42,995 nucleotides of DNA from Candidatus Aenigmatarchaeota archaeon (GCA_043824495.1 JBDRSV010000008.1:1-42995), one strand, 5' to 3'. Shown: positions 3,551 through 39,169, numbered from the stretch's first letter. A program made the numbers and translations. Notes: generated from the sequence alone by a model not told the origin.

Positions 3551-4492
3551 TTATTTGGCTTTTAGTAGATGAGCTAGAAAAGCTTCTAGCTGTATATCAT
3601 CACTACCGCCTTGATTCAATCTGAATTCAAATTCACCGATTTTTTCTATTAATTCTATTTTTTTCTCTTCTTTGATGTCTAGGTCAAAAATCTGTTTGTG
3701 AATTTCTTTGATTATATCCATTCCTGTCAAACCCTGATTGATTAGAAGATCATGTAATTTTTTCCTTGCTTCAATGAAATTTCCATTTAGAGAAACTTCT
3801 ATCATCTCTTTGATGTCTTTTGGTTGAGCTCTTGAAACAACATCATAAACCACATCTTTGTCTATCTTACCCAAAGCTGCTGATGATTGTAAAAGATTTG
3901 TTGCTTTTCTCAGATCACCTTCTGATAGTTCGCATATTGCTTTCATTCCATCAGCTGTTATTTCTATTTTTTCTCCTTCCACAATTCTGTTTACGTATCT
4001 TTCTACATCATCTTCTGCAAGATTTCTAAATCTGAATACAACAGTTCTGGACTGAATTGGTTCTATCAATCTAGATGAGTAATTACAAGAAAATATGAAA
4101 CGAGTTGTTTTAGAAAAAGATTCCATTGTTCTTCTAAGAGCTTGTTGTGCTTCAGGTGTTAGAGCGTCACTTTCATCTAAGAATATTATTTTGAAGTTGG
4201 CGCCCATTGGTTTTATTTTTGCGAAGTCTTTGATTTTACCCCTGACGATATCTATCCCTCTTTCGTCTGATGCGTTGTTTTCAGAGAAATTTTGTCTCCA
4301 GTTCTCACCAAATAACTCTTTTGCTAAGGCTAAGGCTACTGTTGTTTTACCTACACCAGCAGAACCAGCAAAAAGCATGTTTGGAACAGATCCTTCTTTT
4401 ACCCATGCTTTTAATCTATCTACCACGTGTCTTTGGTTAACCACATCATCCAATTTCTTTGGTCGATATTTTTCAGTCCAGACTTCTTCCAT
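3551..4492 (-). CDS. rfcS: replication factor C small subunit
   Basis: WTEKYRP, GSAGVGKTT, NASDERGID, LDESD, SRT sensor. Confidence 0.96.
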   Translation of the reverse strand: MEEVWTEKYRPKKLDDVVNQRHVVDRLKAWVKEGSVPNMLFAGSAGVGKTTVALALAKELFGENWRQNFSENNASDERGIDIVRGKIKDFAKIKPMGANFKIIFLDESDALTPEAQQALRRTMESFSKTTRFIFSCNYSSRLIEPIQSRTVVFRFRNLAEDDVERYVNRIVEGEKIEITADGMKAICELSEGDLRKATNLLQSSAALGKIDKDVVYDVVSRAQPKDIKEMIEVSLNGNFIEARKKLHDLLINQGLTGMDIIKEIHKQIFDLDIKEEKKIELIEKIGEFEFRLNQGGSDDIQLEAFLAHLLKAK

Positions 4493-6235: not shown

Positions 6236-6637
6236 GTGATTAGTATGAATTCTACTGAAATTGCAAACGAAATTAAGAAATATGGAAAAGTGTTAAAATT
6301 AGCAGTAGGTGGAACAGGTATTGTAGTAGATTCGTATAACTTACCAGCTGATTTCCTAATCGAACTTTCAGAATATGCCAATGACCCAGAAAGTTGGCTA
6401 AATTTAACCGGAGAATTAGAAAATAAACCTGTTTTCATTTATACAGGATCTGGACACAATTATCTTAGAATGAGCCCCAGAGGTGGTCTTAGACCATATA
6501 CAATAGAAAAGTTAGAACGTGAGCTTGATTTAACAGATGATATTCTTCCTACACCAATAGGACAAACCAGACACGGAGAGGATCTTAGAACGTATTTGAG
6601 AGAGATGAATGCAAAAAATTTTGGTTCAGATCATTAA
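6236..6637 (+). CDS. hypothetical protein
   Basis: 133-aa ORF directly after the 59-aa ORF; no recognised motif. Confidence 0.65.
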   Translation: MISMNSTEIANEIKKYGKVLKLAVGGTGIVVDSYNLPADFLIELSEYANDPESWLNLTGELENKPVFIYTGSGHNYLRMSPRGGLRPYTIEKLERELDLTDDILPTPIGQTRHGEDLRTYLREMNAKNFGSDH

Positions 6638-7300: not shown

Positions 7301-7343
7301 AACGTATTATTTAAATACTGGACTTTTATAGAATAATACAAAT

Positions 7344-30846: not shown

Positions 30847-30922
30847 GCAATCTGACCGCAACGAGTAGGTTGTGCCGAGCCCTGGCTAGGCTATTTACCT
30901 TTTTAGTAGCTCTTCGGGGCTT
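30847..30922 (+). repeat. B dyad, diverged H start and core
   Basis: GCAATCTG-N11-TAGGTTGT at 30847-30873; CTCTTCGGGGCTT at 30910-30922. Confidence 0.75.
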
Positions 30923-31924: not shown

Positions 31925-32029
31925 GCAATCTGACCACAGCGAATAAATTGTGACGGGCATTCTGATATTTCTTGATAGTTGTTTTGGTGATAATCATAAA
32001 AGAAAATGTTCTACGTTCTCCCGGGGTTT
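31925..32029 (+). repeat. B dyad, H copy 3 (internally shortened) and core
   Basis: GCAATCTG-N11-TAAATTGT; 34/40 to H1; TGTTCTACGTTCTCCCGGGGTTT at 32007-32029. Confidence 0.85.
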
Positions 32030-32379: not shown

Positions 32380-32540
32380 ACAATCTGCTCGCAACGGACA
32401 GGTTGTGACGGGAATTCTGAAGCCTCTTGTTAGCGGTTTACACTCGTGGACAATCTGATTCTGACGAACAAATTGCAGCATTAAAATATGGGCTCTTAAC
32501 TTTATGTTCAACTCCCTCCCGGGGCTTTAAGTCTGGGACT
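32380..32540 (+). repeat. B dyad, H copy 4, second B, core and AGTCTGGGACT flank
   Basis: ACAATCTG at 32380 and 32450 (70-bp period); GTTCAACTCCCTCCCGGGGCT at 32506-32526. Confidence 0.88.
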
Positions 32541-32599
32541 ATGATTATTGTTCATTAATAATGCATAAGTTTATATATTAGTAATGCACAATATTAAGC

Positions 32600-33802
32600 A
32601 TGGTATTAAAAGAAACATTAAAAAATGTGGCTAAACTTCAGCGAAAGGAATTTAAATCTGTTGAGTTGGGAATTCCAAGGGATATCCTTAAAACTATAGA
32701 TTTGAATATACCGCATGCAATAATACTTTCTGGTGTGAGAAGATGTGGAAAAAGCACACTACTAAAACAACTCATCAATAAAATTAACAAATATTATTAC
32801 TTCAATTTTGAAGACCAGAGAGCACTCGGTTTTGTTGTTAGGGATTTTGAAAATTTGGATTCAGTGTTTAACGATGAGTTTGGAAAATCCAAAACATATT
32901 TCTTTGATGAAATACAGAACGTTGATGAGTGGGAACGATTTGTACGAAGCAGGCAGGATTCAGGGAAGAAATTTATAATAACAGGGTCTAATGCATCTCT
33001 TTTAAGTAAAGAATTGGGCACAAGGCTAACTGGAAGACATATAAACTATGAATTGTTCCCGTTTTCATATTCTGAAATGCTTCAGTTGGAATCAAAAAAA
33101 TCCTCTTTGGATTCATTTGGGTATTATATGAAAAATGGAGGATTCCCGGAGTTTTTGAAATATAAAAAGATTGAAATGCTGCAGGAATTGTTTAATGATA
33201 TAATAGTAAGGGACATAATAACAAGATATGGTCTAAGAGAAACAAAAATAATAAAGGAAATGGCCATATATCTCCTAACAAATGTTGGAAAGGAATTTTC
33301 CTATACAAATCTTGCAAAATATTTCAATCTCGGTTCAACGAACACTGCAATATCATACGTTTCTTATTTTGAGGACAGTTACCTGCTTTTCACAATACCA
33401 ATGTTTGATTACTCCTTTAGGAAACAATTGGTTAATCCAAAGAAAGCATATTCCATTGATGTCGGTTTATCAAGAGCCAATTCCGCTTCTTTTTCAGATG
33501 ACAAGGGCAGAATTTTTGAAAACATCATTTTTCTAGAACTGAGAAGAAGGTATAAGGAAATATTTTATTTCAAGGGCAAGAAAGAATGTGATTTTTTAGT
33601 TAAGGAAAAAGGGAAGCTAAAAGAAGCTATACAAGTTTGTTATGAACTTACAGAAGAGAATAAAGAAAGAGAACTCTCCGGATTACAGGAAGCTATGGAA
33701 AAACTAAAAATAAACAAAGGAACAATTATTACATTAAATCAGGATGACAGATTGGGTGATATAGCTGTTAAACCAGCCTGGAAATGGCTTCTAATGAATT
33801 AA
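32600..33802 (+). CDS. AAA_14 + DUF4143 ATPase
   Basis: SGVRRCGKST, FFDEIQ, ITGSNAS, KKAYSIDVG, KECDF. Confidence 0.9.
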   Translation: MVLKETLKNVAKLQRKEFKSVELGIPRDILKTIDLNIPHAIILSGVRRCGKSTLLKQLINKINKYYYFNFEDQRALGFVVRDFENLDSVFNDEFGKSKTYFFDEIQNVDEWERFVRSRQDSGKKFIITGSNASLLSKELGTRLTGRHINYELFPFSYSEMLQLESKKSSLDSFGYYMKNGGFPEFLKYKKIEMLQELFNDIIVRDIITRYGLRETKIIKEMAIYLLTNVGKEFSYTNLAKYFNLGSTNTAISYVSYFEDSYLLFTIPMFDYSFRKQLVNPKKAYSIDVGLSRANSASFSDDKGRIFENIIFLELRRRYKEIFYFKGKKECDFLVKEKGKLKEAIQVCYELTEENKERELSGLQEAMEKLKINKGTIITLNQDDRLGDIAVKPAWKWLLMN

Positions 33803-33805
33803 ATT

Positions 33806-33882
33806 GAGAACAGAAGACACACGACAAGCAGGGATTTCATCCCAGGAATTCTATCCCTCCCGGGGCTTCTAGTCTGGGACTG
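33806..33882 (+). repeat. D element, core and AGTCTGGGACT flank
   Basis: 56/64 identical to 35214-35276; GGGAT-TTC-ATCCC hairpin. Confidence 0.9.
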
Positions 33883-34001
33883 CGGTCCCCGACAGTTTTC
33901 AGTCATGGGTTTATTGAATGTGCTTAAGTATGCATTGTGGATAGAAAATATCTTCTATTGATAATAGAAACATTTAAATATACGTCTCTCTAAATATTAT
34001 T

Positions 34002-35210
34002 ATGATAACAAAAGAGACGCTTAAGGAAGTAATAGTTTCACAGAGAGAGTTCCTGGACAAGATGGATCAGGGAACTCCAAGAGAAAAGAAGATAAAGATA
34101 TTGGATTCTTTTGCCACTATAATCACCGGAATAAGAAGATGCGGAAAGAGTACTTTACTCAATCAGCTGCTGAAAAAACAGAAAAAAGGATACTATCTTA
34201 ACCTTGAGGATCCCCGTCTGGAAGATTTTGAACTCCAGGATTTTAACAAAATAGATGAAATAATGAAGGAGCTTCATGGAGACAAAGGAGTTTATTTTTT
34301 TGATGAAATACAAAATGTTGACAAATGGGAGAAATTCATAAGGTACCTCATTGATAAAAAGGAAAGAATCGTAATAACTGGTTCGAATGCCTCTCTTCTA
34401 AGCCGGGAACTTGGAACAAAACTTACAGGAAGGCATTTACAGGAGGAAATGTTTCCTTTCTCTTTCAGAGAATTTCTTGATATGAGAAAAGAACCCCCAT
34501 CCCTAAAATCTTTTGATAAGTATTTCTATACAGGAGGCTTCCCAGAATATATTAAGAAGCAGAATCCCCCAATACTTCACGAACTGCTTTCAGATGTTGT
34601 GATGAAGGATATTGCTGTAAGGTTTGGAATAAAGAACACAAGCATGCTGAACAAGGTTGCAATCCATCTAATTAGCAACGCAGGAAAGGAATTCTCCTTC
34701 AATTCCATAAAGAAGATGTTCGAAATAAAGTCAGTCCAGAGCGTCATAGATTATGTATCTTATTTTGAGGATGCCTATATGATATTTACCGTGCCTCGTT
34801 TTAGCTATTCATACAAACAGCAGATTGTGAATCCAAAAAAGGTTTATTCTATTGATAATGGCTTTTCTCATAACAATTCAACTTCATTCTCAAAGGATAA
34901 AGGAAGAATGCTTGAGAATGTCGTTTTTCTGGGATTAAGAAGGAAATTCAAGGATATTTTCTATTTCCAAAAGAAATATGAATGTGATTTTGTCATCAAA
35001 GAGGGGAATAAAATAACACGCGCAATTCAGGTTTGTTTTGATTTCAATGAGGAAAACAAAGACAGGGAAATGAAAGGCATTCTTGACGCTCTGAAAGAGT
35101 TTAAATTAAATGAAGGGCTTATTCTAACCTACAATCAGGAAGACGAATTCTTGGCGGATGGCAAAAAAATAACTGTAAAGCCCGCTTGGAAGTGGCTTCT
35201 AACAAAATGA
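34002..35210 (+). CDS. AAA_14 + DUF4143 ATPase (paralog 2)
   Basis: TGIRRCGKST, FFDEIQ, ITGSNAS, KKVYSIDNG. Confidence 0.9.
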   Translation: MITKETLKEVIVSQREFLDKMDQGTPREKKIKILDSFATIITGIRRCGKSTLLNQLLKKQKKGYYLNLEDPRLEDFELQDFNKIDEIMKELHGDKGVYFFDEIQNVDKWEKFIRYLIDKKERIVITGSNASLLSRELGTKLTGRHLQEEMFPFSFREFLDMRKEPPSLKSFDKYFYTGGFPEYIKKQNPPILHELLSDVVMKDIAVRFGIKNTSMLNKVAIHLISNAGKEFSFNSIKKMFEIKSVQSVIDYVSYFEDAYMIFTVPRFSYSYKQQIVNPKKVYSIDNGFSHNNSTSFSKDKGRMLENVVFLGLRRKFKDIFYFQKKYECDFVIKEGNKITRAIQVCFDFNEENKDREMKGILDALKEFKLNEGLILTYNQEDEFLADGKKITVKPAWKWLLTK

Positions 35211-35213
35211 ATC

Positions 35214-35308
35214 GAGGACAGAAGACCGAAAACAAACAGGGATTTCATCCCAGGAATTCCATCCCTCCCGGGGCTTTACCAATTTCTAGATGTCGCTTGT
35301 TATCGATT
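35214..35308 (+). repeat. D element, core and CCAA...TTATCGATT flank
   Basis: D copy 2; right flank 25/30 identical to 38645-38674. Confidence 0.9.
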
Positions 35309-35430
35309 AATTTCTTAAAATAAAATCTCCATTAGGGAACTGCACTTCAATTGCAGGTTAGCCGGAAAGTTGATGCTGGAATTTCTGGAAGATTAAATAA
35401 CGGCCTATATAATTAATTAATAGGATTACG

Positions 35431-36471
35431 ATGTCTGAAAGAAAACTTAATATTTTCAATAAATACCTTACTATTTGGGTAGTTTTGTCTATTAGTATAG
35501 GAACTTTAATTGGATATTTTTTTCCAACTTTTGCAGACACAATTGGAAAATTTGAGATATCAAATATATCCATTCCAATTACATTAGTGTTATTATTTAT
35601 GATGTATCCTATTATGTTAAAAATAAACATAAAGGATATAATTAAAGTAAAAAAAGACAAAAAACCATTGGGTTTGACCCTTTTAATTAACTGGGGAATT
35701 AAGCCATTCAGTACAGCTCTCATAGCATGGTTTTTTATAAGATTTGTATTTTCATCTTTCATCCCTCTGGGTCTTCAATCAGAATACATCGCTGGAATGA
35801 TCCTATTGGGAATTGCACCATGTACAGCTATGGTTCTTGTTTGGACTCATCTTGCTGGTGGAAATGTAAATTACGCCCTTGTACAAGTTTCCGTGAATGA
35901 TATTATCATTCTGATACTTTTTGCTCCTTTAGGTAAATTATTACTTGGCATCACGACAAATTTCCCTGTACCATTTTATACTATCTTATTTTCTGTTCTA
36001 TTTTATGTTGGTATACCATTAATACTTGCTGGTTTGACTAGATACTTTTTGATTAAGAAATATGGGAAAGATTGGTTTCATGATATTTTTATTAATAAAG
36101 TTCAATGGATAAGCCCATTTGGATTATTATTAACTTTGGTTTTACTTTTTATTTTCCAGGGGGATAAAATAATATCATATCCAATACACATTATTCTCAT
36201 TGCCATACCTCTTATAATACAAACATATTTTGTCTTTGCTGTTGGATATTTTGGAGCAAAAAAATTAAAAATTCCATATAATGAAGCTGCGCCATCAACG
36301 TTTATTGGTGCTAGTGATTTCTTTGAACTCGCTGTAGGGGTCGCTATAATATTATTTGGACTCAATTCTGGAGCTGCTTTAGCTACAGTTGTTGGGGTTC
36401 TTGTAGAAGTTCCTTTGATGTTGTCTCTCGTAAAGATAATGAAAATGAAAAAATCGCGTTTTAAATTCTAA
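35431..36471 (+). CDS. acr3: ACR3 arsenite efflux transporter
   Basis: MMYP, LLINWGIKPF, APCTAMV, GASDFFELA, GVLVEVP. Confidence 0.93.
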   Translation: MSERKLNIFNKYLTIWVVLSISIGTLIGYFFPTFADTIGKFEISNISIPITLVLLFMMYPIMLKINIKDIIKVKKDKKPLGLTLLINWGIKPFSTALIAWFFIRFVFSSFIPLGLQSEYIAGMILLGIAPCTAMVLVWTHLAGGNVNYALVQVSVNDIIILILFAPLGKLLLGITTNFPVPFYTILFSVLFYVGIPLILAGLTRYFLIKKYGKDWFHDIFINKVQWISPFGLLLTLVLLFIFQGDKIISYPIHIILIAIPLIIQTYFVFAVGYFGAKKLKIPYNEAAPSTFIGASDFFELAVGVAIILFGLNSGAALATVVGVLVEVPLMLSLVKIMKMKKSRFKF

Positions 36472-36482
36472 AATTATTGATT

Positions 36483-36557
36483 TTTAACTCCTAAGATCAA
36501 TAATACATAGAATTCTCCTATAAGTGGTAATTCAGTTGCCAGGCACTCCCGAGGCTT
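36483..36557 (+). repeat. E element and core, copy 1
   Basis: 65/75 identical to 38568-38642. Confidence 0.9.
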
Positions 36558-36582
36558 AGAATTTAATTCTAATAATGAACAT

Positions 36583-37179
36583 TTACTCAAATTTTGACAA
36601 GAATTGTTCTCCTGTTCTTACAATATAATCTTTAGCATTTTCAGCGCCTTTAGACGTTATGTGAATAAGGTACAGGCCTTTGGCAACCCAAAGATGATAG
36701 TAGTAGACTCCTGGTTCATTAAACTGGCCCCCATAATCATTTTCATTGTTCACACGAAATCTACTCTGATCCCCAAAATCATTCTCGCTTATAAGTCCTT
36801 GGACACTGTACAAGTGCGAGGATTCATATTGGTATGTGTTATTTAGGGCTTCATAATTTGCAAATTTCTTCAATTCAATTATTACTTGGGTATCATTCAA
36901 GCTAGGAATTAGGTAGGCACAGATGCTATATTGCCCCAGTGATGAATCTGCAATATTTGTATAACTTTCCTCTGTTCGACAATTGGTTCCAGTGCTCAAT
37001 CCAAGCTGCTGAAGGTCTTGTTCATTAAGGTCGCTCGTCATTCCAAGCTGCTGAAGATCTTGTTCACTGAGAATCAGATCCTGGGTTCCTGGTACTATAT
37101 TGATTGTATTTGATTGTGTGCATCCAGAAATAATTATAATAATCGCCAAAAGGCCAAGTATCATAAAATTCTTTCTCAT
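36583..37179 (-). CDS. hypothetical lipoprotein
   Basis: basic N-terminus, hydrophobic stretch, ISGC; internal LxEQDLQQLG duplication. Confidence 0.8.
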   Translation of the reverse strand: MRKNFMILGLLAIIIIISGCTQSNTINIVPGTQDLILSEQDLQQLGMTSDLNEQDLQQLGLSTGTNCRTEESYTNIADSSLGQYSICAYLIPSLNDTQVIIELKKFANYEALNNTYQYESSHLYSVQGLISENDFGDQSRFRVNNENDYGGQFNEPGVYYYHLWVAKGLYLIHITSKGAENAKDYIVRTGEQFLSKFE

Positions 37180-37238
37180 GAATTATAATAAGATTCAATC
37201 TATATAATAATTAGAGGAGCTTTGAACTATTTGTCCTA

Positions 37239-37254
37239 ATCCCTCTCGGAGCTC
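37239..37254 (+). repeat. isolated degenerate core
   Basis: ATCCCTCTCGGAGCTC, 13/16 to ATCCCTCCCGGGGCTT. Confidence 0.6.
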
Positions 37255-37384
37255 TCTGTTTCTATTGTAATGCTGGATTTTTCTTATGAGCATATTGCCA
37301 CTTCTGAACCTGATAAAGTAGTTAGAATAATTAAAAGCATGATTCCAAATATTAATAGGTGATTTTCTGACAGAATTTATATTC

Positions 37385-38194
37385 ATGCTAGCTCCCATAG
37401 AGGATATGACAAGCAATGCTTTTAGGACTCTATGTCACAGATACGGTGCTGACCTGACGTTCACTGAGATGGCTAAGGTGGGAGCGCTCGTGAAGAATAA
37501 CAAAAGCACATGGTCCAGACTAGAGTGTAAAGATGAAACCCCTACAGTCATACAACTTCTTGGTAGTAGAGAACAGTATTTCAGGGAATTTCTTGACATG
37601 TTCGAGCCGTCCAATGATTTTCGCGGCTTCAATATCAATCTAGGATGCCCGAGCCCGGATGTCATAAAATTCGGACAGGGATGCGCCATGATTAGGAAGA
37701 TAAGCAAGACGAGAAGGATAATAAACATATTCAAAGATTATGGTTTTGACGTTTCCATAAAGATGAGATTGGGAATGAATGAGAAGGACAAAGAACATAA
37801 GATTTATCTTAAGATAATAGAGTCTGTTGATGCAGATTTCTTTGTGATTCATGCAAGGCATGGAGCTCAGACCTATGCCAATCCTGCAGATTTCGAGGTT
37901 TACGAAGAATGTACTAATACCGGAAAGATCATCATCGCAAACGGCGACATCAAAACCATGGAGCAGATGAAATACCTTAAAGATATTGGAATAAAAGGGG
38001 TCATGATCGGGAGGGTGGCAGTTCTTGATCCGGCCATATTCAATAGACTGAAGGGCTTGCCAAGTCCACAACCAGAGAAAATCAAGGAAGAGTACCTCAT
38101 ACTATCGGAAAAATTCCAGGAGCCATTGAAATATAAAAATAATATATCAAGACGCATCGGAATGTCCGACATGCCATTATTTGACAACAAATGA
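37385..38194 (+). CDS. tRNA-dihydrouridine synthase family protein
   Basis: LAPIE, FTEM, QLLG, NINLGCP, KMR, IHARH, ANGDI, GVMIGR. Confidence 0.9.
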   Translation: MLAPIEDMTSNAFRTLCHRYGADLTFTEMAKVGALVKNNKSTWSRLECKDETPTVIQLLGSREQYFREFLDMFEPSNDFRGFNINLGCPSPDVIKFGQGCAMIRKISKTRRIINIFKDYGFDVSIKMRLGMNEKDKEHKIYLKIIESVDADFFVIHARHGAQTYANPADFEVYEECTNTGKIIIANGDIKTMEQMKYLKDIGIKGVMIGRVAVLDPAIFNRLKGLPSPQPEKIKEEYLILSEKFQEPLKYKNNISRRIGMSDMPLFDNK

Positions 38195-38228
38195 AGTTTA
38201 ACGTGAAATGTAATTTGTCACGTATTCT

Positions 38229-38567
38229 TTGCAAAGATTGCATGAAAGAATTGTTAGTGAATCAGATAAATATAGAATAGAAGCTGTTCCTATAGGCGTT
38301 CAGCAAGGTTTGATTGATCTTACAGAAGCAGAGTCTGGAAGTATGGTTGAATTTTCATATCCTTTTGCTTTAGCTTCATTCAGATCCCATTTTACAATAG
38401 GAAGAACTTTGGAACCAAATCCATCTGAAGATGAAATTAGAGCATTATTAGAGGATGATGTTTTTGCACTTCATGGATATACACTTTCTCCTGATGAAAT
38501 TATAATGTACAATGCAGGTGTAGATGGTAGTTGTATAGAAATTGTGGAAAGATTACCACTAAAATAA
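38229..38567 (+). CDS. hypothetical protein (TTG start)
   Basis: 112-aa ORF ending directly at an E element. Confidence 0.55.
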   Translation: MQRLHERIVSESDKYRIEAVPIGVQQGLIDLTEAESGSMVEFSYPFALASFRSHFTIGRTLEPNPSEDEIRALLEDDVFALHGYTLSPDEIIMYNAGVDGSCIEIVERLPLK

Positions 38568-38674
38568 TTTAACTCCTAAGATCAAATATAACTAGAATTC
38601 TCCTGTAAGTGGTAATTCAGTTGCCAGAAACTTCTGGGGCTTTTCCAACTTCTATGTGTCACATGTTATCGATT
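38568..38674 (+). repeat. E element, core copy 2 and CCAA...TTATCGATT flank
   Basis: begins immediately after the stop codon at 38567. Confidence 0.9.
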
Positions 38675-38771
38675 TAGACCTGAGTTTGCACGAGGAAGAG
38701 ATAAAATCTAGAATCAGATACTTCTTATATCCCCAAGTTAATATCTAACTACTTAAAATGGAGGTTTTATT

Positions 38772-39032
38772 ATGAAAGTTATAAAGAGAGATGATAAACG
38801 AGAGGACTTCAACAACAATAAAGTTAGAAAGGCTATTGAAGAGGCAGCAAAAAGAACAGACGTCGACAACGACAGAACCAAAGAAATAGTAGACAAGGTT
38901 GCAAAAGATGTTGAAGAGAATTTCAAAGACAAGGATGAAGTGAAAAGCGCCGATATTCGAGAAAGAATTCTAGAAAGACTGAACAAAGAAGAGAAAAAAG
39001 TCGCTAATTCATTCAGAGATTATAAAAAATAG
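38772..39032 (+). CDS. stand-alone ATP-cone domain protein
   Basis: MKVIKRDDKREDFNNNKVRKAI; GGAGG RBS. Confidence 0.85.
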   Translation: MKVIKRDDKREDFNNNKVRKAIEEAAKRTDVDNDRTKEIVDKVAKDVEENFKDKDEVKSADIRERILERLNKEEKKVANSFRDYKK

Positions 39033-39046
39033 TAAGTCAGATTCTT

Positions 39047-39076
39047 AAGGGAGTATTTCTCCTTTCTTTATTTTTT
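39047..39076 (+). terminator. hairpin plus T-tract after the ATP-cone gene
   Basis: AAGGGAG-TATTT-CTCCTTT followed by a T-rich run. Confidence 0.55.
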
Positions 39077-39094
39077 ACATGTAAATTGAGAGAT

Positions 39095-39169
39095 TTTTAA
39101 GTATCAAATTCAATCATATATAGAATTCTCCTAAGTGGCAATTCAGTTTCTAGATACTCCCGGGGTTTT
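39095..39169 (+). repeat. E element and core, copy 3 (diverged)
   Basis: TAGAATTCTCCTAAGTGGCAATTCAGTTTCTAGATACTCCCCGGGGTTT (39121-39169). Confidence 0.85.

Follow-up and report, generated by a model that had tools for sequence, protein, structure and literature searches.

A stretch of DNA from a Candidatus Aenigmatarchaeota archaeon (GCA_043824495.1 JBDRSV010000008.1:1-42995; all 42,995 nucleotides are referred to as the window) carries an array of about 10 modules of 1-2 genes each, joined by copies of a 12-17-base stretch from the 3' terminus of tRNA-Thr (the core), around which left and right flanking sequences (arms) are combined freely. Because these core-flanking sequences are mixed and matched, the array resembles an integron-like system of gene cassettes that uses an ordinary tRNA-type att site. 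We consider it probable (about 0.62) that the core is the att core of classical (lambda/pNOB8-type, non-suicidal) tRNA-Thr tyrosine integrases and that the array consists of cassettes moved in trans.

The host is a tiny groundwater archaeon of the DPANN, and its assembly is a metagenome-assembled genome (MAG; 1.01 Mb, about 80% complete). Modules in the array are mostly single genes (0.5-1.4 kb) and mostly co-oriented, with a recombination site at each 3' end, and every arm-plus-core unit lies directly past a stop codon. The window modules are bounded by cores and hold cargo only, as do CIMEs (cis-mobilisable elements), which are flanked by attL/attR and are without integrase or transfer genes; remnants of such genes were likewise absent inside the window modules. 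Neither an integrase nor a tRNA-Thr was found within the 43-kb window, and the array lies away from any tRNA. The assembly is a MAG, and at the core at 32516 the window's path is not followed by public contigs from the probable source run; the precise order of cassettes may therefore not be that of a single genome.

The core 14-mer, CCCTCCCGGGGCTT, occurs three times exactly and in further degenerate copies, all on the plus strand (Table 1). Seven matches with ≤3 mismatches were counted against 0.5 expected, a number attained in 0 of 100 shuffles; the copies at 37241 and 38629 each carry 3-4 changes. The core corresponds to the 3' end of tRNA-Thr (T-stem 3' strand, acceptor 3' strand and U73): the tRNA-Thr(TGT) on contig C9 ends in CCCTCCCGAGGCTC, and that of a relative (L038) ends with the exact 14-mer of the window. 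No cloverleaf was detected at any junction by ARAGORN or Rfam, the window's tRNAs being found only at 7343, 25109, 27575, 27803 and 28833. Core degeneracy might block recombination, and the identity block is short (12-17 bp); archaeal att cores as short as 8-13 bp are given in a review (PMC8371274).

Table 1. Cores, arms and cargo genes of the array, in window coordinates; junction types are written left arm:core:right arm.
Feature	Position	Strand	Remarks
Upstream degenerate core	30909-30921	+	CTCTTCGGGGCTT, then possible CCAA-like flank
Upstream degenerate core	32016-32029	+	TTCTCCCGGGGTTT, behind H-type arm
H-type left arm	32403-32512	+	Repeat common to 29625, 30369 and 31947, then T-loop-like stretch; junction 32516
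Core copy 1	32514-32527	+	Exact CCCTCCCGGGGCTT; H:core:AGTC
AGTC right arm	32530-32540	+	AGTCTGGGACT; opens AAA-1 cassette
AAA_14/DUF4143 ATPase 1	32600-33802	+	Cargo
D left arm copy 1	33813-33854	+	Precedes core copy 2
Core copy 2	33855-33868	+	Exact; D:core:AGTC
AGTC right arm	33871-33881	+	Opens AAA-2 cassette
AAA_14/DUF4143 ATPase 2	34002-35210	+	Cargo; 50% amino acid identity to ATPase 1
D left arm copy 2	35221-35262	+	Precedes core copy 3
Core copy 3	35263-35276	+	Exact; D:core:CCAA
CCAA right arm	35277-35308	+	Opens ACR3 cassette
ACR3 arsenite efflux transporter	35431-36471	+	TIGR00832, 376 bits (cut-off 282.8)
E left arm copy 1	36483-36543	+	Precedes core copy 4
Core copy 4	36544-36557	+	Degenerate, CACTCCCGAGGCTT; E:core:unique flank
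198-aa protein	36583-37179	-	Cargo on reverse strand; no family match
X left arm	37205-37240	+	T-arm-like stem with insertion
Core copy 5	37241-37254	+	Degenerate, 3 mismatches; X:core:unique flank
Dus-family dihydrouridine synthase	37385-38194	+	Cargo; same module as DUF1045 fragment (37385-38567)
DUF1045 fragment	38229-38567	+	Cargo
E left arm copy 2	38568-38628	+	Precedes core copy 6
Core copy 6	38629-38642	+	Degenerate, AACTTCTGGGGCTT; E:core:CCAA
CCAA right arm	38643-38674	+	Opens ATP-cone cassette
Stand-alone 86-aa ATP-cone protein	38772-39032	+	Cargo
E left arm copy 3 + core copy 7	39095-39168	+	Last junction of the array
Core copy 7	39155-39168	+	Degenerate; final junction, behind E arm copy 3

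The left arms fall into a set of four (H, D, E and X) and the right arms into a set of three (AGTC, CCAA and F). A preliminary description had read the junction at 32515/32516 as an H-type left arm with an AGTC right arm, that at 33857 as D with AGTC and that at 35265 as D with CCAA, and alignment bore out all three: AGTCTGGGACT is identical after 32516 and 33857, and the D arms before 33857 and 35265 are 95.6% identical over 45 nt. The junction at 38631 does pair E with the same CCAA flank, as it also held, except that the flanks after 35265 and 38631 (CCAA..ATCGATT) agree at 24/30 positions just past the core, not 25/30 (82% over 44 nt including the core). The E arms before 36546, 38631 and 39157 are 87% identical over 75 nt. 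Compared pair by pair, the left arms E, D and X and the right arms CCAA and F scored above the 99.9th percentile of random genomic pairs; the AGTC arm (11 nt) is too short to pass this test, yet it is identical at a fixed offset. Across the whole 1.01-Mb assembly, CCAA and F arms occur only beside cores, with CCAA arms, besides that at 35277, at 38643, at C15:68560 and on C9 just past the core at 1098 (minus strand). The X arm recurs on C9 (about 1100-1130) and C29 (about 3930-3960), and the E arm is conserved in 8 further genomes, which belong to two families (E-values from 5e-4 to 3e-11 with model R1). The D and X arms hold a stem that ends in the core.

Identity changes abruptly at the core. 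In 9 pairs that share a left arm but not a right arm, it was 0.87 from -30 to -1, 0.81 in the core and 0.24 from +1 to +15; in 7 pairs that share a right arm but not a left arm, it was 0.23 from -15 to -1, 0.86 in the core and 0.65-0.79 rightward. The breakpoints are at the core edges and the arm shuffling is significant, as the earlier suggestion of flanks shuffled around the core, with its proposed breakpoint test, had anticipated. A CCAA start and an E end do enclose unrelated cargo in both the ACR3 module (35277-36557) and the ATP-cone module (38643-39168), and a total of four cassettes are built this way (ACR3, ATP-cone, a ParE toxin-antitoxin and a methyltransferase), two of them outside the window, on C9 and C15. 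Simple tandem duplication including the genes, which the preliminary description had named as its refutation, does not account for these ends: the cargo between CCAA and E is unrelated, and the AAA pair encodes proteins 50% identical between non-coding ends that are 88-100% identical. Its reading of the junctions as hybrid, attL/attR-like sites with reusable cassette ends gained support from the tRNA-Thr core, the C15 integrase, the C9 and C15 cassettes and a TBP cassette described below.

Contig C15 encodes a 418-aa tyrosine integrase (PF00589 match, 1.9e-22) in which the catalytic residues (R, K, HxxR, W and Y) are all intact and are kept across aligned homologues; its start codon lies 58 nt past a core copy. 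Its 7.3-kb element is bounded by direct core repeats at 61247 and 68548, has inverted TTTGAGCAAA motifs just inside both ends (as read by eye), and is followed directly by the CCAA/methyltransferase/E cassette. Homologues of the integrase (30-39% identity) lie directly 3' of tRNA-Thr in three relatives (L023, L030 and L037; ARAGORN labels), with the same placement in three more (L025, L027 and L038; anticodon arms read by eye, L027 also by orthology). On contig C6 of another genome, G056, a 9.6-kb integrase element with cores at 6405 and 16048 ends in E:core and is followed by an ATP-cone cassette. The elements thus have the features of classical tRNA-targeting elements, namely catalytic residues, an intact int beside a tRNA-3'-end core, and direct core repeats; on C15 and in G056 they stand in tandem with a small cassette that they could mobilise in cis, unlike inside the window. 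Because the arms of the C15 element differ from H, D, E, X and CCAA, its integrase may not be the cognate enzyme for the window cassettes.

In the mechanism that we propose, the integrase family would target tRNA-Thr 3' ends in this archaeal order. Each junction would be a hybrid site, its left arm closing the upstream module and its right arm opening the downstream one, so that a module would consist of right arm, cargo and left arm. A circular module would then hold an attP-like site, e.g. E:core:CCAA, and core-by-core recombination, catalysed in trans by an integrase, would integrate modules, excise them and change their order. Repeated rounds would yield a head-to-tail array of 1-2-gene cassettes with interchangeable ends. 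The 418-aa integrase of the 7.3-kb element would be the obvious candidate enzyme, and we infer both that it acts on the window sites and that the window cassettes are still movable. The arms probably carry each cassette's own expression signals; they may double as promoters or UTRs, and their conservation could be partly expression-related.

Relatives provided evidence of movement. In g40, a related genus, a TBP cassette of 715 bp, core to core, is 97.8% identical between two species (genomes G082 and G078) whose backbone identity is about 71%. The similarity begins at one core and ends at the next, the flanking sequences bear no relation to each other, the loci differ, and the cassette, an extra third TBP, is present in only 2/4 congeners. 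The same tRNA-Thr(TGT) is followed by the integrase element in G056 and by the TBP cassette in G082, and in both there follows an E:core/ATP-cone/E:core module, 88.7% identical between them. In G073, tRNA-Thr(CGT) is followed by a 1.1-kb stretch without an integrase and then by an exact core repeat. Among assembled contigs, neither circular nor deletion joints nor empty sites were found for the window cassettes.

The strongest competitor, though unlikely, is a fossil pile-up in which full-size elements entered serially at a tRNA-Thr-type site and were deleted down to 1-2 genes, as in CIMEs, the shuffling recording order of arrival and the units being immobile. The standard origin of att-flanked remnants is tandem integration with later decay (PMC5704250), tandem archaeal elements are described in PMC8371274, several cores here are degenerate, and integrase elements adjoin small modules on C15 and in G056. 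Such a history would, however, need four parallel arm-sparing deletions to leave the same start and end arms around four unrelated cargoes; nor does it suit a 715-bp unit shared core to core at different loci at 97.8% identity against a 71% backbone, or AAA-pair arms far better kept than their cargo. An origin by CIME-style deletion from a larger ICE or IME is not evident, and the reusable arms and the TBP cassette argue for mobility of the units.

That the flanks were shuffled with no integrase involved, through gene conversion and homologous or microhomology-mediated exchange among the short repeats and the arms, we regard as improbable. With lengths of 45-75 nt and 82-98% identity, the arms could support some homologous exchange, and homologous recombination between tandem elements is named in PMC8371274 as a route of module exchange, but the breakpoints lie at the borders of the 12-17-bp core, not within the longer arms, and the same core is the tRNA 3' end beside integrase genes in many genomes. 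Still harder to sustain is the view that the units are RNA-level elements under host selection (tRNA-like signals for 3' processing or termination, alongside 5' modules that bear promoters), their likeness to att sites being incidental. Their place just past stop codons, their mimicry of the T-stem and acceptor 3' strand, the stem of the D and X arms, and the E:core behind ATP-cone genes in three genomes would fit it; against it, folding was not significant (z from -1.5 to +1.1), no Rfam family was found at the cores, the E arm is absent from most other ATP-cone loci, and the core is tied directly to integrase genes and element boundaries.

A true integron or CALIN, as reported in Archaea including Aenigmatarchaeota (PMC9668308), has next to no likelihood despite the one-gene, mostly co-oriented cassettes with a 3' recombination site: the conserved core lies mid-unit and equals a tRNA 3' end, no attC-type hairpin was found, no R''/R' consensus was seen by eye at unit ends, and no integron integrase was found in the assembly. 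DNA folds of 8 junction units gave z from -1.5 to +1.1, with no consistent hairpin of the kind formed by attC, an imperfect palindrome (R''-L''...L'-R') that folds as a single strand, and no GTTRRRY was seen by eye at right ends. No IntI, an enzyme marked by an extra domain, was found among the 7 tyrosine-recombinase loci of the about 80% complete assembly, where the best TIGR02249 match (208.6, cut-off 265) was rejected as an integron integrase and passes the XerA equivalog.

Returning to cassettes moved in trans by tRNA-Thr integrases, we compared the array with known systems. ICESt1/ICESt3 of Streptococcus thermophilus exemplify CIMEs and site-specific tandem accretion at tRNA/att sites (PMC5704250). 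With CIMEs the array shares direct att repeats that stem from the target gene's 3' end, the lack of an own integrase, tandem arrangement with integrase-bearing elements, and hybrid junctions from att-core recombination (PMC5704250); it differs in its mostly single genes of 0.5-1.4 kb with few reusable start and end arms, in having about 10 units in a row, off any tRNA gene, in a roughly 1-Mb DPANN archaeon, and in having no conjugation modules and no evident origin by decay. The ssrA islands of Dehalococcoides (PMC3146451) are likewise stacked, split by repeats of a small-RNA-gene 3' end and moved by site-specific integrases, but they are multi-gene, usually carry their own integrase and remain at ssrA. 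The likeness to classical type II pNOB8/lambda-like archaeal integrases lies in an intact int beside att, a core overlapping the tRNA 3' end and direct repeats; in the text available, the review describing these (PMC8371274) contains neither 'cassette' nor 'DPANN', and single-gene integrase-less arrays with modular arms are not among the elements it describes. As in integrons and CALINs (Ghaly et al. 2022, PMC9668308), mostly co-oriented one-gene cassettes with a terminal site carry unrelated cargo, the integrase can be elsewhere, and cassettes occur in more than one species. Unlike in integrons, the recombination site has a double-strand-type core, which is identical to a tRNA 3' end, and arms conserved in sequence, where integrons have the structure-defined attC hairpin; the candidate integrase is a classical tRNA-targeting enzyme, not IntI, and an attI/Pc platform was not observed.

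Little is understood about how DPANN archaea, with their tiny genomes and their dependence on hosts, acquire and exchange accessory genes. More tentatively, and at somewhat less than even odds, a DPANN order may run an independently evolved analogue of the integron, in which a classical tRNA-Thr integrase, acting in trans through a double-strand core and a small set of modular arms, captures and excises self-expressing cassettes of one gene each and changes their order, and cassettes, even an extra TBP, move between species. If tRNA-type integrase sites can run a cassette array, cassette organisation arose more than once, outside attC/IntI, and a concrete, testable route of gene flow exists in DPANN lineages, with cargo ranging from arsenite efflux, toxin-antitoxin pairs and ATPases to a methyltransferase and a spare TBP. 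The short core and arm models offer a handle for spotting such arrays in other metagenome-assembled genomes. The array itself begins to the left of the reported span, as indicated by the upstream degenerate core at 30909.

The window is contig C8 of an assembly derived from groundwater metagenomes (1.01 Mb in 29 contigs, 35% GC, about 80% complete), in which tRNAs with introns are present. The intron-bearing tRNA-Thr(TGT) on contig C9 has the 3' end CCCTCCCGAGGCTC, which comprises the 3' strands of the T-stem and the acceptor stem together with U73. The repeated core of the window has a G where this end has an A, and this variant is matched exactly by the 3' end of a tRNA-Thr(TGT) in a relative (locus L038). 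Seven core matches at three or fewer mismatches were found in the window against 0.5 expected, a number reached in no shuffle, together with two additional copies; every copy lies on the + strand. No tRNA was predicted at any window core, and Rfam searches at gathering thresholds returned nothing but tRNAs in the window and four other loci.

The cores divide the stretch from about 30.9 to 39.2 kb into modules of one or two genes, whose cargo comprises a nitrilase-type hydrolase, a CxxCxxCC protein, two AAA_14/DUF4143 ATPases, ACR3, an unknown reverse-strand gene, Dus with a DUF1045 fragment, and a stand-alone ATP-cone protein. In the neighbourhood of the glmU-like gene in 13 relatives, no tRNA or core was found within 1.5 kb; this comparison gave no link between the array and an ancestral tRNA-Thr site. 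The gene for the GlmU-like nucleotidyltransferase of the window ends where the variable region has its right-hand limit, beside an unannotated membrane-like ORF. The protein is 224 aa long as compared with about 400 aa in at least 30 relatives, and its C-terminal half was not found anywhere in the (about 80% complete) assembly. At two of the cores (32016 and 32514), a single junction contains both an H-type repeat and the tRNA-type core, a combination of two repeat types.

Positions of cores, arms and neighbouring features in the window (C8), in other contigs of the assembly and in relatives
Feature	Contig	Position	Strand	Remark
Core, exact 14-mer CCCTCCCGGGGCTT	C8	32514, 33855, 35263	+	
Core, degenerate	C8	32016, 36544, 37241, 39155	+	
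Core, additional copies	C8	30909, 38629	+	
H-type repeats	C8	29590-32476		
CTCTTGATAGC.GTTTAT motif	C8	29646, 30390, 31969, 32424		within H-type repeats
Membrane-like ORF	C8	39452-39904		150 aa
GlmU-like nucleotidyltransferase	C8	39915-40589	-	
ThyX-matching ORF	C8	23426-25036	-	536 aa
Core abutting L10e stop codon	C15	61230-61260		= L009 3230-3260
F right arm	C9	435-380		about 55 nt, contains GTGTTTTTGTATCGGGGCTTT; the F arms follow the true tRNA-Thr and two E:core junctions
F right arm	C9	3188-3135		
F right arm	C29	5071-5125		
TBP cassette gene	G082 C20	4351-4938		complete, core-bounded
TBP cassette gene	G078 C2	1104106-1104693		complete, core-bounded
tRNA-Thr(TGT):core locus L047	G032 C1	~499-501 kb		single-contig relative

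The preliminary description had claimed that left and right flanks are shuffled around the core. For 17 cores of the whole assembly, 110 nt on each side were collected and all pairs were scored against random genomic pairs. This gave four left-arm families (D with 2 copies, E with 6, X with 3, and H) and three right-arm families (CCAA with 4, F with 3 and the short AGTC with 2), and these combine freely: E pairs with CCAA, with F and with three unique flanks; CCAA is found behind D, E and X and behind the right end of an integrase element; and F pairs with the genuine tRNA-Thr and with E. In core-anchored alignments, similarity begins or ends at the core edges, with mean identities of 0.87 before the core, 0.81 within it and 0.24 beyond it for pairs with the same left arm, and of 0.23 before, 0.86 in and 0.65-0.79 after the core for pairs with the same right arm. 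The free combination of arms and the switch in similarity at the core edges bear the claim out. CCAA and F arms occur in the assembly beside cores only and are therefore not general promoter motifs. On C9, each F-arm copy is followed by a reverse-strand gene (after the tRNA, a dockerin-bearing subtilase), so the F arm may there double as the 3' end of that gene.

The same arms bound modules elsewhere in the genome. The order on C9 is tRNA-Thr:core:F, the reverse-strand subtilase, X:core:CCAA, a ParE toxin-antitoxin pair and E:core:F; on C29 it is X with a degenerate core, Fic and E:core:F. In the layouts of C8, C9 and C15, four cassettes open with CCAA and close with E (ACR3, ATP-cone, ParE toxin-antitoxin and methyltransferase). 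Simple tandem duplication of modules with their genes was weighed as an explanation of the similar flanks by using the two AAA cassettes, whose proteins are 50% identical and whose DNA is about 57% identical, whereas identity reaches 88% in the last 60 nt and 95.6% in the D arm proper, and the AGTC starts are identical. Ends more alike than cargo indicate that the ends are held or renewed independently of the cargo, and duplication was rejected as a full explanation.

Seven tyrosine-recombinase loci were found in the assembly, of which one (C10) passes as XerA and none as an integron integrase. The candidate enzyme for the array is the 418-aa integrase on C15, with conserved R, K, HxxR, W and Y positions. 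Its gene starts 58 nt after a core, which itself lies immediately against the stop codon of the gene for ribosomal protein L10e. The element ends at a second core, 7.3 kb downstream of the first, after which come a CCAA arm, the methyltransferase gene and an E arm with a third core. The left flank of the element is non-tRNA, and a T-loop-like GGTTAAAT within the L10e coding sequence precedes its core. A paralogue on C24 adjoins tRNA-Thr(GGT). The C15 integrase was matched in 39 of 100 relatives at E ≤ 1e-10, and in most of the loci inspected the integrase gene immediately follows the 3' end of a tRNA; this is tRNA-Thr by ARAGORN label in three loci and, with anticodon arms read by eye, in three or four more (one confirmed by orthology). 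In two metagenome relatives (46% identity) the integrase uses another tRNA end, with a left flank that is a real tRNA in one and non-tRNA in the other.

Judged from sequence, we read the core as the att core of an integrase, the junctions as hybrid sites, and the modules as behaving like cassettes with modular arms. An attC-type hairpin was rejected, as the junction folds were no different from shuffles. The system would work like an integron yet fall outside that family, which is defined by the attC hairpin and IntI, neither found here; published archaeal integrons are attC-based (PMC9668308). The array fits both classical tRNA-targeting integrase elements and CIME-type accretion (PMC5704250), but differs from them in unit size, in its reusable arms and in its location away from a tRNA. 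The text of a review of archaeal tyrosine recombinases (PMC8371274) contains neither "cassette" nor "DPANN".

With a model of the E arm and core built on sequence alone, copies were found in 8 other genomes, in two families; applied to 15 other ATP-cone loci, the model gave no further copies. A DNA search of 60 relatives with the E:core:CCAA unit gave no match outside this genome, and exact-pattern scans for the E arm in genome and metagenome contig collections gave none. In G082, from a related genus (g40), tRNA-Thr(TGT):core is followed by a 705-nt module encoding a TATA-binding protein (TBP), E:core, a 728-nt module encoding an ATP-cone protein, and E:core. The G082 and G078 copies of the TBP module share 97.8% identity over 715 nt, with similarity running from core to core and both flanks unrelated; between the two genomes, the gene preceding the tRNA reaches only 71% identity, and in G078 it lies about 870 kb from the TBP module. 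This TBP is an additional, third paralogue in the genomes that carry it, two of four congeners; the protein is 96% identical between G082 and G078, and its identity to the genus's other two TBPs is 61-71%. At the same tRNA-Thr(TGT), G056 has a 9.6-kb integrase element ending in E:core, followed by an ATP-cone module 88.7% identical to the G082 copy. In G073, an exact core repeat lies 1.1 kb after tRNA-Thr(CGT) with no integrase in between.

In L047, the flank behind tRNA-Thr(TGT):core contains CTCTTGATAGC.GTTTAT, and the same flank appears again 2.1 kb further on, behind an E-like arm and core; the motif also lies within the window's H-type repeats. In G005 (C44) and G030 (C28), stand-alone ATP-cone genes share a contig with weaker tyrosine-recombinase matches (28-29% identity) at a distance of 5-6 kb. 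The ATP-cone protein has 3-4 matches in several genomes, which suggests that integrative elements often carry it as a passenger.

Reads were mined as assembled Logan contigs, in which no circular joint, no clean deletion joint between cores and no empty site was found; a joint from 32529 to 38568 was listed, but its intervening sequence is undefined and the joint uninterpretable. Run X2 gave short low-depth pieces only (9% of words) and X3 next to nothing. In X1, the likely source run, a 61,484-nt contig follows the window to 32529 and a 30,508-nt contig covers it from 33839 back to 32513, each then departing into other sequence. Up to this core, both are 99-100% identical to the window, at a depth of about 39-41, and they do not continue into each other there. 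The shared stretch is not long enough to mislead an assembler working with 31-mers; these departures hint at alternative junctions in the population at the core 32513-32529, or at a conflict between assemblies.

Elsewhere in the window, the ORF matching ThyX (Thy1) is unusually long for ThyX; its best domain match covers residues 313-503, and there is a second match elsewhere.
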